Shown here: positions 49,812 through 57,600 of the stretch, piece by piece
Position numbering within the stretch: the first letter of the stretch is position 1
Layout: the number at the start of each line of letters is the position of its first letter
Program-made: the position numbers and the translations under genes
DNA from: a virus
Taxonomy: Duplodnaviria; Caudoviricetes
DNA length: 64,000 nt
Virus record (IMG/VR): IMGVR_UViG_3300022602_000027
Reading direction: 5' to 3' (one strand)
Notes under the pieces: generated by a model
What the model saw: only the letters and a program-made list of their open reading frames with translations
Databases searched by the model: none
Told to the model about the DNA's origin: nothing

Positions 49812-51314
49812 TTATCCCAATAGTTTTTGTGTCAATGCACGGATTTGATCAACTTCACGATTTTCAACTAACGCTGGAGTTTCGGCACGATTTAAACGAG
49901 CCATTTGCTCTTTCATACGTGTAAAATCTGTTGATTCGTTAACTGCTTCTTTGAATGGCTTACCTGCTTTGGCGGCGGCCTTAGCACGTGAACCCCATAC
50001 TTCGTCTTTGTTGCTTTCTACTTTACCGTCGCCGTCGTAGTCTTTGTCAGCTTTTTTAGCAACAGCTTTTTTCTCTTCGATGTAAGCAGTAGTTTCTTTG
50101 ATATTCTTCCACATAGCGGCAGCGGCAATCTTCTCACCTTTCTCACCACCACCAGCTTTCTTAGCTAGTTTGTCAAAGTTTTTACCTGGCTTGCCAATGT
50201 CTCCACCTGCTTTAGCTTTCTTAACTGTAGCAGATTTTTTCTCTTTGCTTAGTCCTGCGCTCGGCTTACCTTCTTGCATTGGTGCAGGTGCCATTGGTGC
50301 AGGTGCGGCTGATACAGTTGCTGGTGGAGGAGTAGTTGTATCACATTCGTACATTTGTCCACCTTTAATTGATGGATGGCTGTGATAGCACTCGCCCATA
50401 GCACCGTGTTGAATCTTACCACCGTGCTTCATGCACTCGGCTTTGTGGTGTTGGCATAGATCTAAATTACCTGCTTTGTGATGTTTAGCATATTCAGTTG
50501 CGTGATGATGTGCTAATTCAGCTGGGCTCATATTTTCTTTAAGATTTTTTTTACCTAGTTTTTTACTATCAATTTTTTCTAATTTATCGTGGTGAGCTTT
50601 TTTATCTGGATGCGCACCCTTCATAGATCCTTCTGGAAGTAGTTCGTCATCATTGCTTTGATTCATACGCTTAATAGCGGCATGAGTAGCTTTCATCTTA
50701 GTATGATATGCTTCTGCTTTAGCAACAACGTTTGGATGAGCACGATCTCTTACGTGTGCTTTAGCAACATGTCCACTACCGCCACATGCTGAACATGGTT
50801 CTGTCATTTCCTCATCTAAATCTTTATCTGGGGAATTGCCATGACCTTTATAGCTATCTGGGAATTGTTTTTCGTAACGAGCACCAGTTTTAGTCTTAGT
50901 TGCTTTATGACCAGTTTTAGTCTTATATGTATCGCCTTCTTCGTCACTAGCATCAAACGAATCTTTGTTTGAATGTTCTTTACTTTCTTGAGCAATTTTG
51001 GCAGCTTGAGATTTTTTAAGCTCTTTCATTTTAGCTTTAGCTTCTGATAACACGGATAATGCATGAGCTTTTTTCTCTGCGTCCATAGAACTTTCGTTCA
51101 AATATTTGCTGTAATTATTGAACTTTGTTTCATATTCTAAATAGTGATATACTGATGCAATGCTATCAGCTGCCTTAGATACCTTTGATTCTACCCAAGG
51201 CTCTAAATTTTCACTACCTTCTAGTTGTTCAAACAACTTCTTAGCGTAGCTTGCTAGTTTGTATAAGTCGGCTTTAGCCATATTTCCATCCATATTGTTA
51301 TCTAAATCTGCCAT
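49812..51314 (-). CDS. Probable prohead core/internal protein, mosaic of short modules
   Basis: N-terminal G.MAK.DL...L.PWV.SK...AAD helical hairpin, CSACGGSG, a His/Cys-rich patch, a Lys-rich patch and DKDYDGDG. Confidence 0.5.
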   Translation of the reverse strand: MADLDNNMDGNMAKADLYKLASYAKKLFEQLEGSENLEPWVESKVSKAADSIASVYHYLEYETKFNNYSKYLNESSMDAEKKAHALSVLSEAKAKMKELKKSQAAKIAQESKEHSNKDSFDASDEEGDTYKTKTGHKATKTKTGARYEKQFPDSYKGHGNSPDKDLDEEMTEPCSACGGSGHVAKAHVRDRAHPNVVAKAEAYHTKMKATHAAIKRMNQSNDDELLPEGSMKGAHPDKKAHHDKLEKIDSKKLGKKNLKENMSPAELAHHHATEYAKHHKAGNLDLCQHHKAECMKHGGKIQHGAMGECYHSHPSIKGGQMYECDTTTPPPATVSAAPAPMAPAPMQEGKPSAGLSKEKKSATVKKAKAGGDIGKPGKNFDKLAKKAGGGEKGEKIAAAAMWKNIKETTAYIEEKKAVAKKADKDYDGDGKVESNKDEVWGSRAKAAAKAGKPFKEAVNESTDFTRMKEQMARLNRAETPALVENREVDQIRALTQKLLG

Positions 51315-51340: not shown

Positions 51341-51348
51341 TATTTATC
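51341..51348 (-). promoter_or_regulatory. Late promoter GATAAATA
   Basis: Overlaps the upstream TAA stop; 27 nt before the 51314 start. Confidence 0.7.
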
Positions 51349-52159
51349 GTCTTTTGATGATTGCGGCTTTTTTACGAGCCTTTGGTTTGTAGTCTTCCAT
51401 CGGAGCTCCAAACAAACTTACTTTATTTTGATCCAGTGCATTAACGCTTTTTACGGGCTTATTATTAGCGTTATTAGCATAATCTGGGTTTATTACTGTG
51501 GCTACATTAGCGGAACTTGTAGCACCTACTGTAGCTGATTCTTTAACGTTCTGCTCTTTCATTAGCGCAGAATTACCTGTGCTGTTTTCAATGTCTTGTT
51601 CTTTACTACTAATAGAGTAGTCCATAACAGTTACAATTTTATCTGAGGCTTGCGCAATTTCACTTTGAACCCAGTCCGGTAAATCTTCGTCATCACCTAT
51701 TGCATTAATCAAGTGTGTTATTACTCGGTTCATAGTATGAAGTTGATTTTTAACAAAATTGCCTTCGCCTTGGGTATGATTCTTAGGATCTACATTTTTT
51801 ATTTCTGTATCTCTAACGTTGCCTTTAAACTCTTCTGCTACGCCCTCTGGTTTACCAAATGGGAATACTTCGATCCATTTGCCGCCTTCGTTTTTAACAA
51901 ATTTACCTTGATGAAACTTACTGCGTACAATATGGGCATGTTTAAGTGCTCGTGTTTGATCGGGTCTCCAGCCGTTGTATTCTGCTTCTCCCTTGTCATC
52001 AGGATAAACCCATTTTTCTTTCATGCGACCGTCAACAACTTTGTACCATCTTGATGGTGGTTCAGCGGCATCGTCTTCGTGGCCCATACGCTGGATATCA
52101 CGTTTACTCCAGCCTGTTACGTCACGGAAACCTGCTTCAATTAAATTGTGCATTTTCAT
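51344..52159 (-). CDS. Probable internal head protein
   Basis: MKMHNLIE targeting-like start; contains the same EG..VKNQL...LPDWVQS.I..ASD hairpin as the next gene. Confidence 0.55.
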   Translation of the reverse strand: MKMHNLIEAGFRDVTGWSKRDIQRMGHEDDAAEPPSRWYKVVDGRMKEKWVYPDDKGEAEYNGWRPDQTRALKHAHIVRSKFHQGKFVKNEGGKWIEVFPFGKPEGVAEEFKGNVRDTEIKNVDPKNHTQGEGNFVKNQLHTMNRVITHLINAIGDDEDLPDWVQSEIAQASDKIVTVMDYSISSKEQDIENSTGNSALMKEQNVKESATVGATSSANVATVINPDYANNANNKPVKSVNALDQNKVSLFGAPMEDYKPKARKKAAIIKRR

Positions 52160-52386: not shown

Positions 52387-52829
52387 TACTTAAGACTCGC
52401 TCTCAACATCCAGCTGTGTTTTTTATGTGCATCTTGACGATCAGCCAAGAAATTGCTTAGTCCATGATCACCATGTCCTTCTGCCATATCAAAAGTAATA
52501 CGAAATATTTCTGACATCTTTTCGCTATCTGCTAACAATTCACTTAACATTCCATGTGTATCGGGAACAGCATTTTCATCTTCAACTGCTGATAACAAAC
52601 TAAATTTTTGTAGGCTAGCAGGTGTATATACTTCTAACGCACGAATTTGTTCAGCAAATGTATCAATGCTACCGTATACTTCGTCATAAATTCTTTCAAA
52701 CAATAAATGCAGTTGATAAAATATTGGCCCTTCACAGTTCCAATGAAAATTTTGTGCCTTTAATGCAAAGGCATATTCACTGGCAAATGCAGTCTTGAGT
52801 GCTAAATGATATTTGTTTGATTCTTCCAT
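52386..52829 (-). CDS. dps: Dps/ferritin-like DNA protection protein
   Basis: LKAQNFHWN.EG..FYQLHLLFE.IY.E...IDTFAEQIRAL ferroxidase signature; HKK..WML.A end. Confidence 0.92.
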   Translation of the reverse strand: MEESNKYHLALKTAFASEYAFALKAQNFHWNCEGPIFYQLHLLFERIYDEVYGSIDTFAEQIRALEVYTPASLQKFSLLSAVEDENAVPDTHGMLSELLADSEKMSEIFRITFDMAEGHGDHGLSNFLADRQDAHKKHSWMLRASLK

Positions 52830-53383
52830 TATACACCGTACTTGTTACGAGGTTTTTGTGCAACTGGACTAGTTTGATTTACAGTTGACAACTCTACACT
52901 AGGCTTACTAGTTTTTAAGCTAGTCTTATGCCCTTGTCGTTTAATTTCTTTATCAAACCTTGCATGTTCTTCAGGAGCGAAAGGCATAAAGAATGGATGC
53001 TTACCGATATTGTCGGCAGTGGCAATATTACGATCCCCGGCTGCTAGTCCCATACCTAATCTATATACACCGTAGAAATCGCTTGGTAAATCTTCTACAC
53101 TAAATGCTCCGGGCATCGCAGCCTTTGATTCATCGGATAAATCTCCTCGAATACTACCGTATTCATTATTATCTTGATGACGACTATGCGTGTCATGCGG
53201 GGATCCATCTTTTGGAACCCCTAACTTACCTGATGTAAATGATTTAGGGTTGTATTTTTTTGTAGCTTGAGTTATTTTACCGTCCTTTTTTGTTTGCGCA
53301 AGAGTTTTACCTTGACGATCAACTTTGTCAGGGTTGCTTATGCTATCATCAGCAGATTCGATAATAAATTCTTTAGCTCTCAT
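52829..53383 (-). CDS. Probable capsid-targeted protein with a conserved unknown C-terminal domain
   Basis: MRAKEFIIE start; YRLGMGLA...SPVAQKPRNKYGV end. Confidence 0.7.
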   Translation of the reverse strand: MRAKEFIIESADDSISNPDKVDRQGKTLAQTKKDGKITQATKKYNPKSFTSGKLGVPKDGSPHDTHSRHQDNNEYGSIRGDLSDESKAAMPGAFSVEDLPSDFYGVYRLGMGLAAGDRNIATADNIGKHPFFMPFAPEEHARFDKEIKRQGHKTSLKTSKPSVELSTVNQTSPVAQKPRNKYGV

Positions 53384-53767
53384 TTAAATTCCGTATTTGT
53401 TTCGTTTCTTAGCGGCTACAGGACTTACATTGTGTACATCATCGGGTTCGTGGCTTGGAGTACGTGGACGAACTTGATGGTATTCTGTAGGTATTGCTTT
53501 ATGAACTTGCTGTATCATTTCATGTTCTTTATCAGTATATGGGTGTAAAGTCCACATAGTCCCCATCCAGCTTTCGTGATCAATATCAAGTTTTTCATTA
53601 CTACCGTCTGCCATTGCTAGTGCCATACCTGTACGCAATTGGTGATATGATGGATACCAACCACCTGGATCACGCTGACGGCTGTATCCTTGATGGACTG
53701 CTTCGTGGTCCGGATGCGTTTGCCCAGATCGTTCAGTTATGAATTCTTTAGCTCTCATTTAAATTCC
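53367..53767. repeat. 26-nt direct repeat at two gene junctions (53367-53392 and 53742-53767)
   Basis: aattctttagctctcatttaaattcc is identical in both and spans a stop codon plus the next start. Confidence 0.9.
53384..53758 (-). CDS. Probable capsid-targeted protein, stand-alone copy of the same domain
   Basis: MRAKEFITE start; LRTGMALA...SPVAAKKRNKYGI end. Confidence 0.7.
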   Translation of the reverse strand: MRAKEFITERSGQTHPDHEAVHQGYSRQRDPGGWYPSYHQLRTGMALAMADGSNEKLDIDHESWMGTMWTLHPYTDKEHEMIQQVHKAIPTEYHQVRPRTPSHEPDDVHNVSPVAAKKRNKYGI

Positions 53768-56700
53768 ATACTTGTTACGTTTAGGCTTAGCCACTGGACT
53801 ATTCTTATTAATGTTGTCTGGCTCGCGACTACGATCTGATAATACTGTTGGATTACCGATGCCTAAAGTTTTTCCGGCTGCTTTGATGATTTCTAAATCT
53901 GCATCACTATATGGTGCTAGTAAAGGATCTCCAGCAAACCAACTTGCAGTGGGCATGTCGATATTTTCATCTGCATTAGGGTGAGCACCTGCTAGTGCAA
54001 GTCCAAAACGATATTGCAGATAACTACTACCGTTTGATTTATTCATGCTAATGTCTGGATAACTAACTGCATTATTAAGCCCTGCGATTGAATTATGTGA
54101 AAGCTCTTGAACATCGCCTTGTCCAGCATAAGGCGCATCTTTAGTAGCCGCTGTAATTGTAGCTTTTTCGTTAAGTTGTTTTCTTGTAAATTCGCTTGCT
54201 CGCATTTTTCTAATCCAGTTGTTGGCTTCTTTTATATTTAGCGGTTCAACAGGTGGCTCATCTTGTGCTGGAACTTGTGCCGGTATTTGAGGTTGTGGGT
54301 TAGGATCACGCTTATCAACAACATTTACAGAAGCTCCGGGAACCATGCCCATGCCCTGCTGTGTTACTTGCATTAGATGTTTAATCCAAGAATCTGGTAA
54401 AGGTTTAGCACCAAATGATCCGCCATTAAACGCATCTCGCCAAAATTCCATAGCTGGTTCTTTATGACCATGTGCCGCCAATGCTGCCATTTTGCGTAGT
54501 TGTGTGCCACTTACACCTTGTCCACGTGGCGTAACATCTAAACTTGCGCGAACGTGTTCGTAACCAGCAAACTTGTTAACTGCTTTCATTAGAACTTGTG
54601 CAATATTCATATTAGCACGATCCTCACCCACCATAATAACAATATTGTCGTATCGCGGAGGTTTGCCTGGTAGCGGATTGATTAATTCGTGTTTAATCTT
54701 TTGTAGTAGTGTACCGCCTTCATGTGTGACTGTACTCATATGGCTAGCATATTGCGGATACAATTTATGCCATGTTTGAACTTTGATGCTAGGAGGAATA
54801 GGATCATCCTTGCCTTCTGCATTGCCAATAAACAAATATGGATCACCGCCTAATTCTTTAGCCTTGTTAACTGTATAATTCCACAGCTCTTGATGTCCTT
54901 TGTGTCCAACAAACGACCCTATAGCAACTACAGCAGTTTTATTAGTGTTTTCACGAGTCTGTTCAGCTCTTGCGGCAGCCTTGGCAGCATTTTTATTTGC
55001 AATAATTTGACGTTGCTCTTGGCTGGTAACCTTAATAGGACCTAATCTACTATTAATAACAATACCTTCGTATTCATCACCTAGTAAATTTTTACCAACA
55101 ATATTAGGATCGTTAATAATAGCCTTTTCTAATTCTAGTGCTATCGGTTGTAGTATTTCTTTAGCTTCACGTTTTAGTGCTAGTTTTCCACTAGTTAACA
55201 TTGCTTTAATTTGTTCAATGTTCTCCATTGGGGGAACAATGGCAGTAACATCTAGGGCTTTGTTTTGTGTTAATCTATTGTTAATAAACATAACACTATC
55301 TTGTTGTCCAAGTTTTGTTAATTGTTCAACTACTTTATGCCCATCGGGGATTGACTCACCTGTAGTTGCATCACTAACATGGAACGGAACAAGAGCTAAT
55401 TCAATACCTTCAGGCAATTTGTCATAGTGTATACCGACAAATTTTAATTTACCTTCTGGTGTTTCTGTAGCAAATGGAATGAATAAGACTTCACATGTTA
55501 CTTGTTTGTTTACTAAAAATTCTGGACCTAACTTACTGTCTACTAATTCTATAGCTTTCATCATTTCGTTAAACAAGTCATCAAACATTTGAGCACGACC
55601 TAGTATGTCCGGATCAGTTGTTCCTTTTTGTTGATGGTATTTTACAAATCCAGGTTCATAACGTGGCTCAGTACGGCTAGTACCCATAAAAGGTTTGCCT
55701 TCTGCATTTTTACCAAAGCGTCCACCAAAGCCGTCTACTTTAACATTAAGTGGAATATTCTTTAATTCAAACTTACCATTGTCGTGTAGCTCGTCTAGTA
55801 AATCTAATAAGTCCATTGGTTTTAAATCACGCAAGTGTGGCATACCTTTACGTAATTGTGCTTTAACTTCAGCTTCAGTTAACGGACGACTAGCATTACG
55901 AGCCGCACGTAGTTTGGCAACTTGTGCTCTTGGTTGACGTTCTTCAGGATAATCTTTTTTATACTGTTCAACCTCGTGATGCTCTTCTTCATAATCAGCC
56001 GCCATTGTTTTAGCTTTAGTTTCTAAAGATGCTTTGTCGGTTAAATTAAGATGTGCTAGTGCATAATTAATAGCAGACATTTTAACAGCACGATCGCCTT
56101 CTGGATCGTCTCTGTTTATCATTTGTGAACCTACTTCAAAACACAATTGAATAAAAGCATCCATTGTTATTTGATTTTCTTCAGGAGTTTTAAAAGTATT
56201 CATTAAATCAATAGTACCAACAAAACTTTTTTGTTTTTCGCTTTCCTGTTTATTAGGTTGACGACCAAAGAATAATTCAAACTGTTGATTTAAATCTTGT
56301 ATATAGGGTCTATCTTTAGTAGGTATTTCAATCATAATTGGAATACCGTCCTGCTCGCGTCCAGTTTCTTGATACTTTTGACTCAATCCGCCACCAGTAG
56401 TTCCATGTACAGCAAATGATATGTTACTGTCAGTGATTGGACCTTTTAATTTAGTCTTCATCTGAACATATTTTGTTGTAGGTGATCCTTTAGTTAATGA
56501 TCTATACAAGTATTTGTGGAACACACCTTTGATGCCGCTGACTACCCCAGTGCCATCCTTCTTGCCTTTTTCCTGCGCACTTAAATCGTTCCACTCTGAG
56601 TTGTGACTGAATCTATACCAAGGAGTCGGTGCATTAGTCTTTTGGTCATACTCACCAAATTCAAAATCTATTTGTACTTTGATAGGTAAATGATTTGATG

Positions 56701-57169
56701 TAATTTCAAATAATGCATTAAATTGTCCGCCGTTGTTACTAAATCCTAGTAACTTTGCAGGACCTACTTGTCTTCCATGATGTGTTGTTAAAAAGTTTTT
56801 AACTTGTGGTTCTAAATTTCTATCGCATTGTGTATCTATATCACCGACTACTGGTTTTACTCTTAAAAATTCTTCGTCTGATATATGCGGTACATTAAAA
56901 AAGTGCAGTGATGAACCTCCTAAGAATTCTCTACTCTTTAATAGTTGAGGATTCCATAGTGGTGTACTATTTTGTGCTTCAAATGCTTGATTAATTCCGT
57001 GCAGGACTTGATCTAATATTCCAATGACTTGTGTACGATTGTGTACAGCTAAGTCTATACGATCGGCACGATGTTTAATATTAGGATCGTTAACATCATC
57101 AACTTCGGCATTACCGCCTTCAACAATGATAATGTGGGGTTTGCGTACAAACAACTCTCGTAATAGCAT
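53759..57169 (-). CDS. Multidomain nucleotidyltransferase: pol-beta NTase, ligase-like adenylyltransferase, HIGH-class NTase and repeated C-terminal domain
   Basis: LGGSS...GDID...QIDF (GDID at 56845-56834); NVKVDG...EGIVI...IKVT (KVDG at 55741-55730); HKGH (54904-54893)...VGEDR...SGTQLR; YRFGLALA...SPVAKPKRNKYGI. Confidence 0.7.
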   Translation of the reverse strand: MLLRELFVRKPHIIIVEGGNAEVDDVNDPNIKHRADRIDLAVHNRTQVIGILDQVLHGINQAFEAQNSTPLWNPQLLKSREFLGGSSLHFFNVPHISDEEFLRVKPVVGDIDTQCDRNLEPQVKNFLTTHHGRQVGPAKLLGFSNNGGQFNALFEITSNHLPIKVQIDFEFGEYDQKTNAPTPWYRFSHNSEWNDLSAQEKGKKDGTGVVSGIKGVFHKYLYRSLTKGSPTTKYVQMKTKLKGPITDSNISFAVHGTTGGGLSQKYQETGREQDGIPIMIEIPTKDRPYIQDLNQQFELFFGRQPNKQESEKQKSFVGTIDLMNTFKTPEENQITMDAFIQLCFEVGSQMINRDDPEGDRAVKMSAINYALAHLNLTDKASLETKAKTMAADYEEEHHEVEQYKKDYPEERQPRAQVAKLRAARNASRPLTEAEVKAQLRKGMPHLRDLKPMDLLDLLDELHDNGKFELKNIPLNVKVDGFGGRFGKNAEGKPFMGTSRTEPRYEPGFVKYHQQKGTTDPDILGRAQMFDDLFNEMMKAIELVDSKLGPEFLVNKQVTCEVLFIPFATETPEGKLKFVGIHYDKLPEGIELALVPFHVSDATTGESIPDGHKVVEQLTKLGQQDSVMFINNRLTQNKALDVTAIVPPMENIEQIKAMLTSGKLALKREAKEILQPIALELEKAIINDPNIVGKNLLGDEYEGIVINSRLGPIKVTSQEQRQIIANKNAAKAAARAEQTRENTNKTAVVAIGSFVGHKGHQELWNYTVNKAKELGGDPYLFIGNAEGKDDPIPPSIKVQTWHKLYPQYASHMSTVTHEGGTLLQKIKHELINPLPGKPPRYDNIVIMVGEDRANMNIAQVLMKAVNKFAGYEHVRASLDVTPRGQGVSGTQLRKMAALAAHGHKEPAMEFWRDAFNGGSFGAKPLPDSWIKHLMQVTQQGMGMVPGASVNVVDKRDPNPQPQIPAQVPAQDEPPVEPLNIKEANNWIRKMRASEFTRKQLNEKATITAATKDAPYAGQGDVQELSHNSIAGLNNAVSYPDISMNKSNGSSYLQYRFGLALAGAHPNADENIDMPTASWFAGDPLLAPYSDADLEIIKAAGKTLGIGNPTVLSDRSREPDNINKNSPVAKPKRNKYGI

Positions 57170-57171
57170 GG

Positions 57172-57546
57172 TTAGTCCTTGTACTTGCCTTCAGCATGGT
57201 GTTGACTGTGATCATCGTATAATTTTTCACATACCTGCTTAAGAGTGTCTTCATCTAAGTTGTCTGGAAGTTCACGAATAGGAAATTGTTTAATATAGGA
57301 TTTATAACTGTCTTCTACGGCTGTTTTAAATATTCCAGGCTTTGGATCTTTTTTGCTATCTTTGATTTCTAAGAATTTAGCAAGTACTGGATATGTGTAA
57401 CGACGATAGCAATGATCGTCATGCTCCATGAAATGTGTTAGATCATCAACAATGTCATAGTTAATACTGCGACGTCCATCTTCTTCGTGTTGTACAAAGT
57501 CTGAATCTTTGAAGAAAGTACCTTCTAATAGTTCTCTTAAGCGCAT
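57172..57546 (-). CDS. Probable capsid-targeted small protein
   Basis: MRLRELLE start; first gene behind the late promoter. Confidence 0.6.
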   Translation of the reverse strand: MRLRELLEGTFFKDSDFVQHEEDGRRSINYDIVDDLTHFMEHDDHCYRRYTYPVLAKFLEIKDSKKDPKPGIFKTAVEDSYKSYIKQFPIRELPDNLDEDTLKQVCEKLYDDHSQHHAEGKYKD

Positions 57547-57592: not shown

Positions 57593-57600
57593 TATTTATC
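57593..57600 (-). promoter_or_regulatory. Late promoter GATAAATA
   Basis: Opens the 57546-46173 gene block. Confidence 0.7.

Follow-up and report, generated by a model that had tools for sequence, protein, structure and literature searches.

What do three consecutive phage genes, one of them for a large enzyme, have in common that all of them should end in the same peptide? The block that raises this question lies on the minus strand of the window, the 64,000-nucleotide stretch of DNA analyzed here, where genes for a 184-aa protein, a 124-aa protein and a 1136-aa enzyme are consecutive and arranged head to tail. The 110-residue module that the three proteins share is undescribed and is found here on an uncultured giant T4-related phage. 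Most genes in the window terminate with TAA. The features of the block are:

52829..53383, minus strand: RNKYG paralogue of 184 aa (leader MRAKEFIIE, insert of ~75 aa, core, tail SPVAQKPRNKYGV)
52832..52870, minus strand: C-terminal tail of the 184-aa gene, SPVAQKPRNKYGV
53357..53383, minus strand: nine-codon leader of the 184-aa gene, MRAKEFIIE
53367..53392, minus strand: 26-nt stop/start junction, copy 2, identical to copy 1
53384..53758, minus strand: stand-alone RNKYG paralogue of 124 aa (leader MRAKEFITE, core, tail SPVAAKKRNKYGI)
53387..53425, minus strand: C-terminal tail of the 124-aa gene, SPVAAKKRNKYGI
53732..53758, minus strand: nine-codon leader of the 124-aa gene, MRAKEFITE, resembling a T4 CTS, last residues I-x-E
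53742..53767, minus strand: 26-nt stop/start junction, copy 1
53759..57169, minus strand: 1136-aa enzyme
53762..53800, minus strand: C-terminal tail of the enzyme, SPVAKPKRNKYGI
53762..54205, minus strand: RNKYG module forming the enzyme C-terminus, residues 989-1136, from internal MRASEF to SPVAKPKRNKYGI
57172..57546, minus strand: upstream gene of 124 aa, no assigned function, leader-like start MRLRELLEG
57593..57600, minus strand: T4-late-promoter-like motif GATAAATA, 47 nt upstream of the first gene of the block

Triplication of the RNKYG module

The shared module can be aligned in all three proteins, corresponding to the last 148 residues of the enzyme. In BLASTP, the 124-aa protein matched the enzyme tail at E = 5e-17 and the 184-aa protein at E = 2e-9, and the 184-aa protein matched the enzyme tail at E = 9e-10. 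The three genes are paralogues, and the tandem duplication of a module of ~110 aa proposed in the initial annotation is confirmed by the alignment and these E values. The span given there for the module, 52829-54130, was correct in that the module is real; its edge at 54130 is wrong, as the enzyme module starts at the internal MRASEF (residue 989, base 54205). The copy said to carry an insert is the 184-aa protein, in which ~75 residues follow the leader.

All three proteins end in SPVA-x3-RNKYG[IV] (SPVAQKPRNKYGV, SPVAAKKRNKYGI and SPVAKPKRNKYGI). A conserved 26-nt junction had been reported as well, and 26 identical bases, GGAATTTAAATGAGAGCTAAAGAATT, are indeed common to both stop/start junctions (53767-53742 and 53392-53367). 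The claimed conservation of the C-terminal motif extends to the family, since 146 of 195 members end N[KRQ][YFHW]G[IV]. The N-terminal nine residues are conserved as strongly as the tail, a point little stressed in the first reading.

In the window the three genes share one frame and TAA is followed directly by ATG, an arrangement that would allow readthrough of the TAA-separated genes into one polyprotein. We consider this extremely improbable: each copy keeps its own Met-led leader, TAA is the usual stop codon of the window, and the frame relation is not conserved in relatives, whose gene junctions have a 1- or 4-base overlap or a 1-base spacer. The polyprotein was rejected on this last ground.

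A stand-alone copy consists of a nine-residue leader, a fast-evolving core of ~95 residues and a basic tail. Few core positions are fixed (Y38, R42, S102, E104, S112, and P113 in the numbering of the 124-aa protein). The tail carries about four net positive charges and usually places N[KR]YG[IV] at the free C-terminus. In about one quarter of the family RNKYG is swapped for other basic, aromatic-containing tails, which argues against a single strict docking peptide. The median mature pI of 9.1 compares with 9.0-9.65 for T4 internal proteins; the 124-aa copy and the fused module of the window are near neutral (pI 6.6-6.7).

A first AF2 run with 29 sequences gave a pLDDT of 65 and no fold match. 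With a deeper alignment, the model of the 124-aa protein reached a pLDDT of 87.9 and a pTM of 0.54, with sparse secondary structure. The fold search with the AF2 model gave a best Z of 2.3 against 48,161 chains, no Foldseek match, and TM values of 0.32 or lower in the Atlas. Complex prediction with the three paralogue modules, which addressed the idea of a hetero-oligomer, scored 0.01 and was counted neither way.

Distribution and evolution of the family

The family comprises 574 clusters at 50% identity, and every sequence seen is from an uncultured phage or a metagenome. Copies usually stand in tandem arrays of 2-4 (copy number ranges from 1 to 4), and in many lineages an array of 2-4 consists of free copies, without a fused enzyme in the vicinity. 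Searches of 50,697 phage records found no match to the region (megablast) or to the 124-aa protein and a second family member (tblastn). The family profile did not match the genomes of Phosso and Atu_ph07, the nearest cultured relatives by polymerase, in which the interval from ClpB to polymerase holds tail-like genes and no leader. With 122 members, Pfam and PHROGs gave only stray single matches (E > 0.001) and no PHROGs family, PDB sequence searches gave no match, and a protein-atlas feature search returned only unnamed viral clusters. The initial annotation had not recognized the family, and we likewise found no real match to it in Pfam, PHROGs, the PDB or the structure libraries. The exact-leader DNA pattern had 10 matches in bacterial genomes; only two of them are RNKYG proteins, and these come from contigs of a single cyanobacterial MAG.

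Identity in the module is 54-69%, vs. 90% for DNA polymerase and 89% for Dps. The triplication is nevertheless kept in order among relatives, the order of fused copy and free copy is conserved, and the mean column identity of each paralogue line is 73-74%. To judge from these alignments, the genes stem from an ancient duplication followed by fast but constrained evolution, and not by free diversification. Of the diversifying cores suggested earlier, the rapid change thus stands, whereas free diversification does not, each paralogue line being conserved.

Fast evolution could also point to free copies that act as injected inhibitors of host defense like T4 IPI*, with conserved ends for delivery only and a variable core as the weapon. 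A module that is 54% identical, set against the polymerase and Dps values, would fit this idea, as would the range in copy number and the variable inserts in the third copy, and T-even internal proteins have been described as diverse defense proteins sharing only the targeting sequence (PMC3012670). However, a single homologous core, in which Y, R, S, E, S, and P are fixed, runs across the 574 clusters, the paralogue lines are well conserved, and the T-even internal proteins are mutually unrelated, unlike the RNKYG family. The searches made here also brought up no match related to defense. We regard this explanation as rather improbable.

The N-terminal leader and the fusion partners

Stand-alone copies begin M[RK][AI]xE[FI][ILV]xE; the family logo (143 stand-alone members) has E9 in 127 of them and hydrophobic residues at positions 6-7. 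In T4 record AF158101, IPII and IPIII start MKTYQEFIAE, gp24 starts MAKINELLRE and gp22 starts MLKEQLIAE. Such T4 propeptides, 10-20 residues long, are enough to direct packaging and are cleaved off by gp21 (PMC5694885, PMC3012670). The window leaders MRAKEFITE and MRAKEFIIE have the (L/I)-x-E ending of the propeptides of T4-type capsid-targeted proteins. Comparison of the family profile with IPII and IPIII by hhalign aligned the leader alone, at a probability of 8% or less, and homology of the mature protein to T4 IPI, IPII, or IPIII was absent in hhalign.

The leader also occurs apart from the module. MKLR[EQ]LFEN is the start of unrelated transferase bodies, and MILRELFY opens a small gene that a close relative has between its portal and prohead-core genes. 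The upstream 124-aa gene (MRLRELLEG) is a conserved neighbor in 24 related loci. Among the 638 ORFs of a relative with a complete 524-kb genome, 12 scored above 8 with the leader matrix, compared with 0.07% of internal Met positions; leader-bearing proteins of this genome include a GH19 lysin-like protein, an amidoligase, DUF6321 proteins and an LRV-repeat protein. Because unrelated proteins across a complete genome and a transferase N-terminus carry it, the leader, as far as sequence can tell, can move between proteins and does not belong to any one fold. Many leader-bearing proteins are without the RNKYG module, which makes the module dispensable for the proposed targeting. All synonymous codons are used in leader and tail, and selection evidently acts on the peptide at both ends. 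Conservation of the leader at the RNA level was rejected, since synonymous codons vary freely. The enzyme's own N-terminus, MLLRELFVRK, scores poorly with the leader matrix, and a short amphipathic N-terminal peptide could serve other purposes.

The enzyme starts MLLRELFV, followed by a Pol-beta-type NTase-like part (phrog_19290), a ligase-like part (phrog_12709; DUF6267 in relatives), a cytidylyltransferase/NMNAT-like part with HxGH (phrog_3041) and the RNKYG module. It is split in relatives (619 aa + 393 aa); a relative's orthologous module, likewise fused, shares 69% identity with that of the window. The module stands at the extreme C-terminus in nearly all fusions. The fusion partners are enzymes with nucleotides or phosphate esters as substrates (CTP_transf_like in at least five fusion lineages, zeta/AAA_33 kinase and HD_4 hydrolase), with an NMNAT-like transferase as the commonest. 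The hydrophobic-x-E motif is kept at the module start in fusions. The internal MRA is present in 9 of 12 close-relative fused copies, and in 7 of the 10 fusions retaining MRA, I/L-R-E stands directly before it.

That all recurrent partners handle nucleotides or phosphate esters speaks for a cytoplasmic accessory domain of nucleotide- or RNA-handling enzymes, which would bind substrate or nucleic acid (e.g., tRNA or DNA ends) or regulate the enzyme; the free paralogues would be trans subunits or competitors, and the N-terminal peptide the first helix of the fold. The hydrophobic-x-E retained at the module start and the conserved order of fused and free copies agree with such a role, and so does the basic aromatic tail, which in about a quarter of members keeps its composition and not its sequence, as for nucleic-acid binding. 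We find this explanation credible but unlikely, because the leader is also carried by unrelated proteins of the complete genome and by the transferase's own N-terminus, many arrays of 2-4 free copies have no fused enzyme close by, and the gene neighborhood appears late and structural.

Head genes, apparent late context and the proposed role

There are no head genes in the window, so that the prohead protease is shown in relatives only. Four of five large records encode Peptidase_S77 (T4 gp21), as does a close relative. One complete genome has a Pfam match to the Gp23 capsid-protein family, and the same order of portal, protease and capsid genes recurs in a close relative. In more distant relatives, arrays lie three genes or fewer from the large terminase (16 loci) and from a baseplate-like gene (31 loci). 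ATAAATA occurs 9 times vs. 32 expected and is found upstream of tail-fiber genes and of the RNKYG block; the GATAAATA motif class is also present upstream of tail genes and depleted elsewhere. The late promoter upstream of the block is putative and based on the motif. In the complete relative, 4 of 12 leader genes have the late motif against a background of 21%, which is uninformative.

The head genes of the relatives bear on another explanation, in which the RNKYG proteins are minor parts of the prohead core or scaffold: the tail would dock on shell, portal or protease, the proteins would be degraded or expelled at maturation, and the fused module would be a removable C-terminal handle for loading. 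In three distant relatives, the core gene that immediately precedes the protease gene ends N-x-[KR]-S-[PV]-V-[AE], a basic stretch and a final I/V, which resembles the layout of the RNKYG tail. Further points in its favor are the nearly invariant S102-x-E104 (S/A/G-x-E is the phiKZ-type cleavage motif; PMC5694885), the I/L-R-E before the internal MRA in fusions, and an AF2 model that is locally confident, with little secondary structure and a pTM of 0.54, as for a chain that needs a partner. However, the core protein in the lineage of the window ends NKKSTIGGRIR and not SPVA, and the genome with an SPVA-ending core protein has FKGY-tailed RNKYG copies, so the tails do not co-vary. In addition, the residue after S-x-E is often proline, and T4-type sites have L/I where the motif has S. 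We hold this explanation to be distinctly improbable. The link between the RNKYG tail and the prohead-core protein tail was rejected, as it is seen in three distant relatives only and is absent from the window's lineage.

We give a nearly even chance to the reading that the RNKYG proteins, one of them an enzyme, are late proteins that are packaged in the head and ejected with the DNA. It is suggested by the match of the leader to T4 propeptides and its recurrence on unrelated proteins, by the T4-type protease and capsid protein encoded in relatives, by the apparently late context, by selection on the peptide at both ends, and by a fast-evolving C-terminal module, basic in median pI, that joins enzymes of nucleotide or phosphate-ester chemistry, phages being known to package effector enzymes. 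The poor leader score of the enzyme, the near-neutral pI of two copies and the cultured relatives without the family are evidence against it. The analogy with T-even internal proteins drawn in the initial annotation gains support from the T4-like leader, the T4-type head genes of relatives and the late-promoter motif.

In the packaging reading, the leader would act like a T4 capsid-targeting sequence and carry the protein into the scaffolding core, where a T4-type prohead protease would cut it off after (I/L/V)-x-E. Module and basic tail would remain inside the head, where the tail would most likely anchor the protein to packaged DNA or to an acidic inner surface, so that it would exit with the DNA. 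Fusion to the module would give the same behavior to the NMNAT-like transferase, zeta-type kinase, HD hydrolase and three-part nucleotidyl-transfer enzyme, and the free paralogues may either make up bulk internal protein or act as host-directed inhibitors. Leader and module might even form a two-ended address by which giant phages arm their heads with enzymes: the N-terminal peptide would load the protein into the prohead and be cut, and the C-terminal module with its free basic tail, a natural handle that can be transferred, would bind cargo to DNA or shell and govern its ejection. We view this extension as doubtful.

If packaging is correct, widespread uncultured giant phages load a dozen or more different proteins, enzymes included, by a T4-like address peptide, and the RNKYG module is a new and very common component of head cargo. 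There would then be a rule, readable from sequence, by which the injected proteins of metagenomic phages could be predicted, candidate counter-defense or repair enzymes of the first minute, and possibly a natural tag with which foreign proteins could be loaded into large capsids. Even without packaging, there remain >570 clusters of proteins whose predicted structure has no match and whose termini are both under strong selection.

Comparison with known systems

Encapsulin cargo-loading peptides and the C-termini of P22 and herpesvirus scaffolds are short conserved peptides at the extreme C-terminus of varied proteins. The RNKYG tail is likewise a short, conserved, extreme C-terminal peptide on varied enzymes; unlike them, it varies in about a quarter of members, and there is no sequence likeness. 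SPN3US gp53/gp54 and the phiKZ head paralogues have identical N-termini and a diverged remainder and are processed by the prohead protease (PMC5694885). They share with the RNKYG proteins the constant N-termini of giant-phage paralogues, but their propeptides exceed 100 residues, they belong to another phage lineage, and no sequence relation was found.

T4 IPI, IPII, and IPIII are small proteins with mostly basic mature forms and a leader of about ten residues ending (I/L)-x-E (PMC3012670), as in the RNKYG family, and in both the bodies diverge and the leader stays. T4 internal proteins are late, and lateness of the RNKYG family is motif-based here. The bodies of the RNKYG proteins are not homologous to those of the T4 proteins. 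The RNKYG family has one conserved core and a conserved C-terminal tail, neither of which the T4 proteins have, and its module is also the C-terminal part of enzymes. Some effector enzymes are known to be packaged by phages and to enter the cell together with the injected DNA (polyvalent proteins; Iyer et al., 2017, PMC5512222). Like T4 Alt and the polyvalent proteins, the 1136-aa protein is a multi-domain enzyme, joining three nucleotidyl-transfer-type parts, with packaging predicted from the leader. Unlike in those proteins, no MuF, portal-fusion or ART domain was seen, and the proposed address is a short leader together with the RNKYG module.

A three-gene array and its protein family

Three minus-strand genes of the window lie head to tail and share a module of about 110 residues (the RNKYG module):

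53759-57169, minus strand, gene for the 1136-aa enzyme, whose C-terminal module is the fused copy
53384-53758, minus strand, stand-alone 124-aa copy
52829-53383, minus strand, 184-aa copy

The last 148 residues of the enzyme, the entire 124-aa protein and the 184-aa protein minus its 75-residue insert can be aligned (BLASTP E = 5e-17, 2e-9 and 9e-10), and all three end in SPVA-x3-RNKYG[IV], as the initial annotation had described. The two stop/start junctions are identical over 26 bases, also in agreement with it. Both free genes start with MRAKEFI[TI]E. The fused copy opens with an internal MRASEF; its start at base 54205 is the sole correction to the stretch originally assigned. Readthrough of the three genes into a single polyprotein was rejected as exceedingly improbable, because the frame relation of the trio varies among relatives.

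A word-index search with the 124-aa protein gave 43 relatives, every one metagenomic. A profile, built as proposed initially and searched against 1.84 billion cluster representatives, retrieved 574 RNKYG clusters at E ≤ 0.001, of which 365 had E ≤ 1e-10. The majority stand alone and are 113-135 aa long; where the protein is longer, the module almost always sits at its extreme C-terminus, joined to cytidylyltransferase/NMNAT-like domains (at least five lineages), a zeta-toxin/AAA_33-type kinase, an HD_4 hydrolase or, in many cases, a partner without an identified domain. IMG/VR contains at least 307 RNKYG loci. Tandem arrays of 2-4 copies were observed in 51 of 82 loci examined, which bears out the tandem duplication postulated earlier. 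Such arrays are widespread, and the gene order (fused copy, 124-aa copy, often a third copy) is unchanged in the closest relatives; the triplication is therefore old.

None of 122 members gave a real Pfam or PHROG match, and the family was absent from the 50,697 cultured-phage records searched. It had no match either in Sinorhizobium phage Phosso (50% identity) or Agrobacterium phage Atu_ph07 (45%), which are the closest cultured phages when DNA polymerases are compared. The AlphaFold2 model of the module (122 sequences; pLDDT 87.9, pTM 0.54) consists of only three short helices plus long confident coils. It had no match among 48,161 PDB representatives (best Z 2.3), in Foldseek (zero matches) or in the ESM Atlas (TM ≤ 0.32), so that the family remains as unrecognised as on first reading. 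The model suggests a small fold of a new type or else a chain shaped by its partner. We concluded that RNKYG is a genuine phage protein family, large, so far undescribed and conserved at both termini.

In the bacterial genome collection, the only RNKYG proteins were on L127 and L130, two low-coverage contigs of JANZYY010000022.1, a cyanobacterial MAG labelled Fischerella sp. These contigs are probably binned phage DNA; the copies are a possible host hint.

Conserved ends and a fast-changing core

The leader of 143 stand-alone members has the consensus M-[R/K]-[A/I]-x-E-[F/I]-[I/L/V]-x-E; position 9 is E in 127 of them. The C-terminal motif is conserved in homologues, as anticipated: 146 of 195 members end in N[KRQ][YFHW]G[IV], and in most of the remaining tails SPV precedes an aromatic residue and a lysine/arginine run. 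Every synonymous codon occurs at the conserved positions of leader and tail, so that at both ends the peptide, not the RNA, is under selection. Median charge is +4 over the last ten residues and about -1 for the core; mature proteins have a median pI of 9.1. A quarter of members carry other basic, aromatic-containing tails, and for this reason a charge-based grip on DNA or an acidic surface seems to us likelier than a strict docking peptide, although the marked preference for a free Y-G-[IV] end would still allow a specific pocket.

A second recurrent C-terminal module was also seen: low-complexity E-A/S-A-T-x-GATSS...N-P, then NAL[DN]....S[LI]FG[GA]P and a basic end. It ends the leader-like 271-aa protein of the window (51344-52159, minus strand) and occurs in P0064, P0065, P0086, P0090 and P0017 and at L017:7578-8549 and L024:6372-7310. 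In some relatives it follows the RNKYG core, replacing the usual tail.

Compared with those of a relative, proteins of the window phage had the following identities:

DNA polymerase, 90%
Dps-like neighbour, 89%
Fused RNKYG module, 69%
124-aa copy, 54%
Transferase part, 33%

Mean column identity inside each paralogue line is 73-74%. The diversifying cores proposed initially thus held for speed of change (54-69% vs. 90% for the polymerase), but the module is constrained as well as fast-evolving. The enzyme, a single chain at 53759-57169, is split at L002:6959-9999 into a 619-aa protein with DUF6267 and a 393-aa transferase plus module; the DNA polymerase of that phage is 90% identical to that of the window. 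Transferase parts only 33% identical despite such polymerases suggest module exchange in the enzyme.

A putative late motif and neighbouring genes

The heptamer ATAAATA, the T4 late-promoter core, is strongly depleted in the window (9 occurrences vs. 32 expected):

11133, 11143, 15336, 16871, plus strand, ATAAATA
28556, 29363, 51341, 57593, 62728, minus strand, ATAAATA

Most copies are just upstream of gene starts, including those of tail-fibre genes, the first gene of the block and gene 49812-51314. This placement fits a late-promoter core. In more distant relatives, the arrays are at most three genes from the large terminase, a baseplate-like gene and a spanin-like gene. The 124-aa protein at 57172-57546 (minus strand; MRLRELLEG...GKYKD), without a family match, is conserved in 24 related loci as the upstream neighbour of the enzyme.

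Head genes and comparison with T4

Head genes were observed in relatives, which encode Peptidase_S77 (the T4-type protease); one complete genome has a Gp23 capsid-protein family match. A close relative (DNA polymerase 90% identical) has the order portal, core gene, protease, scaffold-like gene, capsid-sized gene. In this relative, an 80-aa gene between portal and core genes (L120:8444-8686) starts MILRELFY, in the leader style of the enzymes; in G004 and G005 the corresponding genes begin with MKLFEMF and MKLLEMF. The prohead-core proteins encoded directly upstream of the protease in G001, G004 and G005 (L089:589-1419, L087:606-1433, L088:2011-2895) end in N-x-[KR]-S-[PV]-V-[AE]-ESR...KRR[IV], a layout like the RNKYG tail; that of the window's own lineage lacks it and ends in NKKSTIGGRIR. 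That RNKYG proteins are themselves removable prohead-core parts is decidedly unlikely. In G001, four tandem paralogues of ~310 aa (357869-361735, L109-L110) directly follow the capsid gene, starting M[ED][IF]TGG[ML]TF and ending DTTGVGTAR...YG.

The leader also starts unrelated transferase bodies (MKLR[EQ]LFEN) and 12 of 638 ORFs in a complete 524-kb relative, vs. about 0.5 expected; these include a GH19 lysin-like protein, an amidoligase, two DUF6321 proteins and an LRV-repeat protein. The leader is a movable unit. This mobility, the head genes of relatives, the placement of ATAAATA and the position of the arrays in more distant relatives are all in keeping with a targeting role. Our leading, still tentative reading is that RNKYG proteins are made late, packaged in the head and ejected, with a T4-like leader as their address: it would target the protein to the head, cleavage would follow (I/L/V)-x-E, and the protein would then be ejected. 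In fused proteins (L007-L018, P0056, P0069, P0088, P0089) the linker reads ...YANK[VI]IRE | MRA[KQ]EF, with an I-x-E site directly before the retained internal Met, so that a T4-type cut would free a module with the stand-alone N-terminus; the fusion of the window has IRK in place of IRE.

The module's own function is the weakest part of the packaging reading. Many leader-bearing proteins lack the module, so it would be dispensable for the proposed targeting. The main alternative, a rather unlikely one, is that the module is a cytoplasmic domain of nucleotide enzymes that binds nucleic acid or has a regulatory role. Injected inhibitors of host defence, an idea compatible with packaging, appear less probable still.

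In T4, IPII and IPIII start MKTYQEFIAE, gp24 MAKINELLRE and gp22 MLKEQLIAE. The internal-protein, gp24 and gp22 propeptides are removed by the prohead protease gp21, and the internal-protein leader is a capsid targeting sequence that suffices for foreign proteins to be loaded into the head (PMC3012670, PMC5694885). When the family profile was compared with IPII and IPIII, the leader alone aligned. The analogy to T-even internal proteins drawn initially thus applies to the leader and not to the bodies, and the likeness is one of shared address rather than shared family. In the most likely reading, the family would be a novel type of T4-style head cargo.
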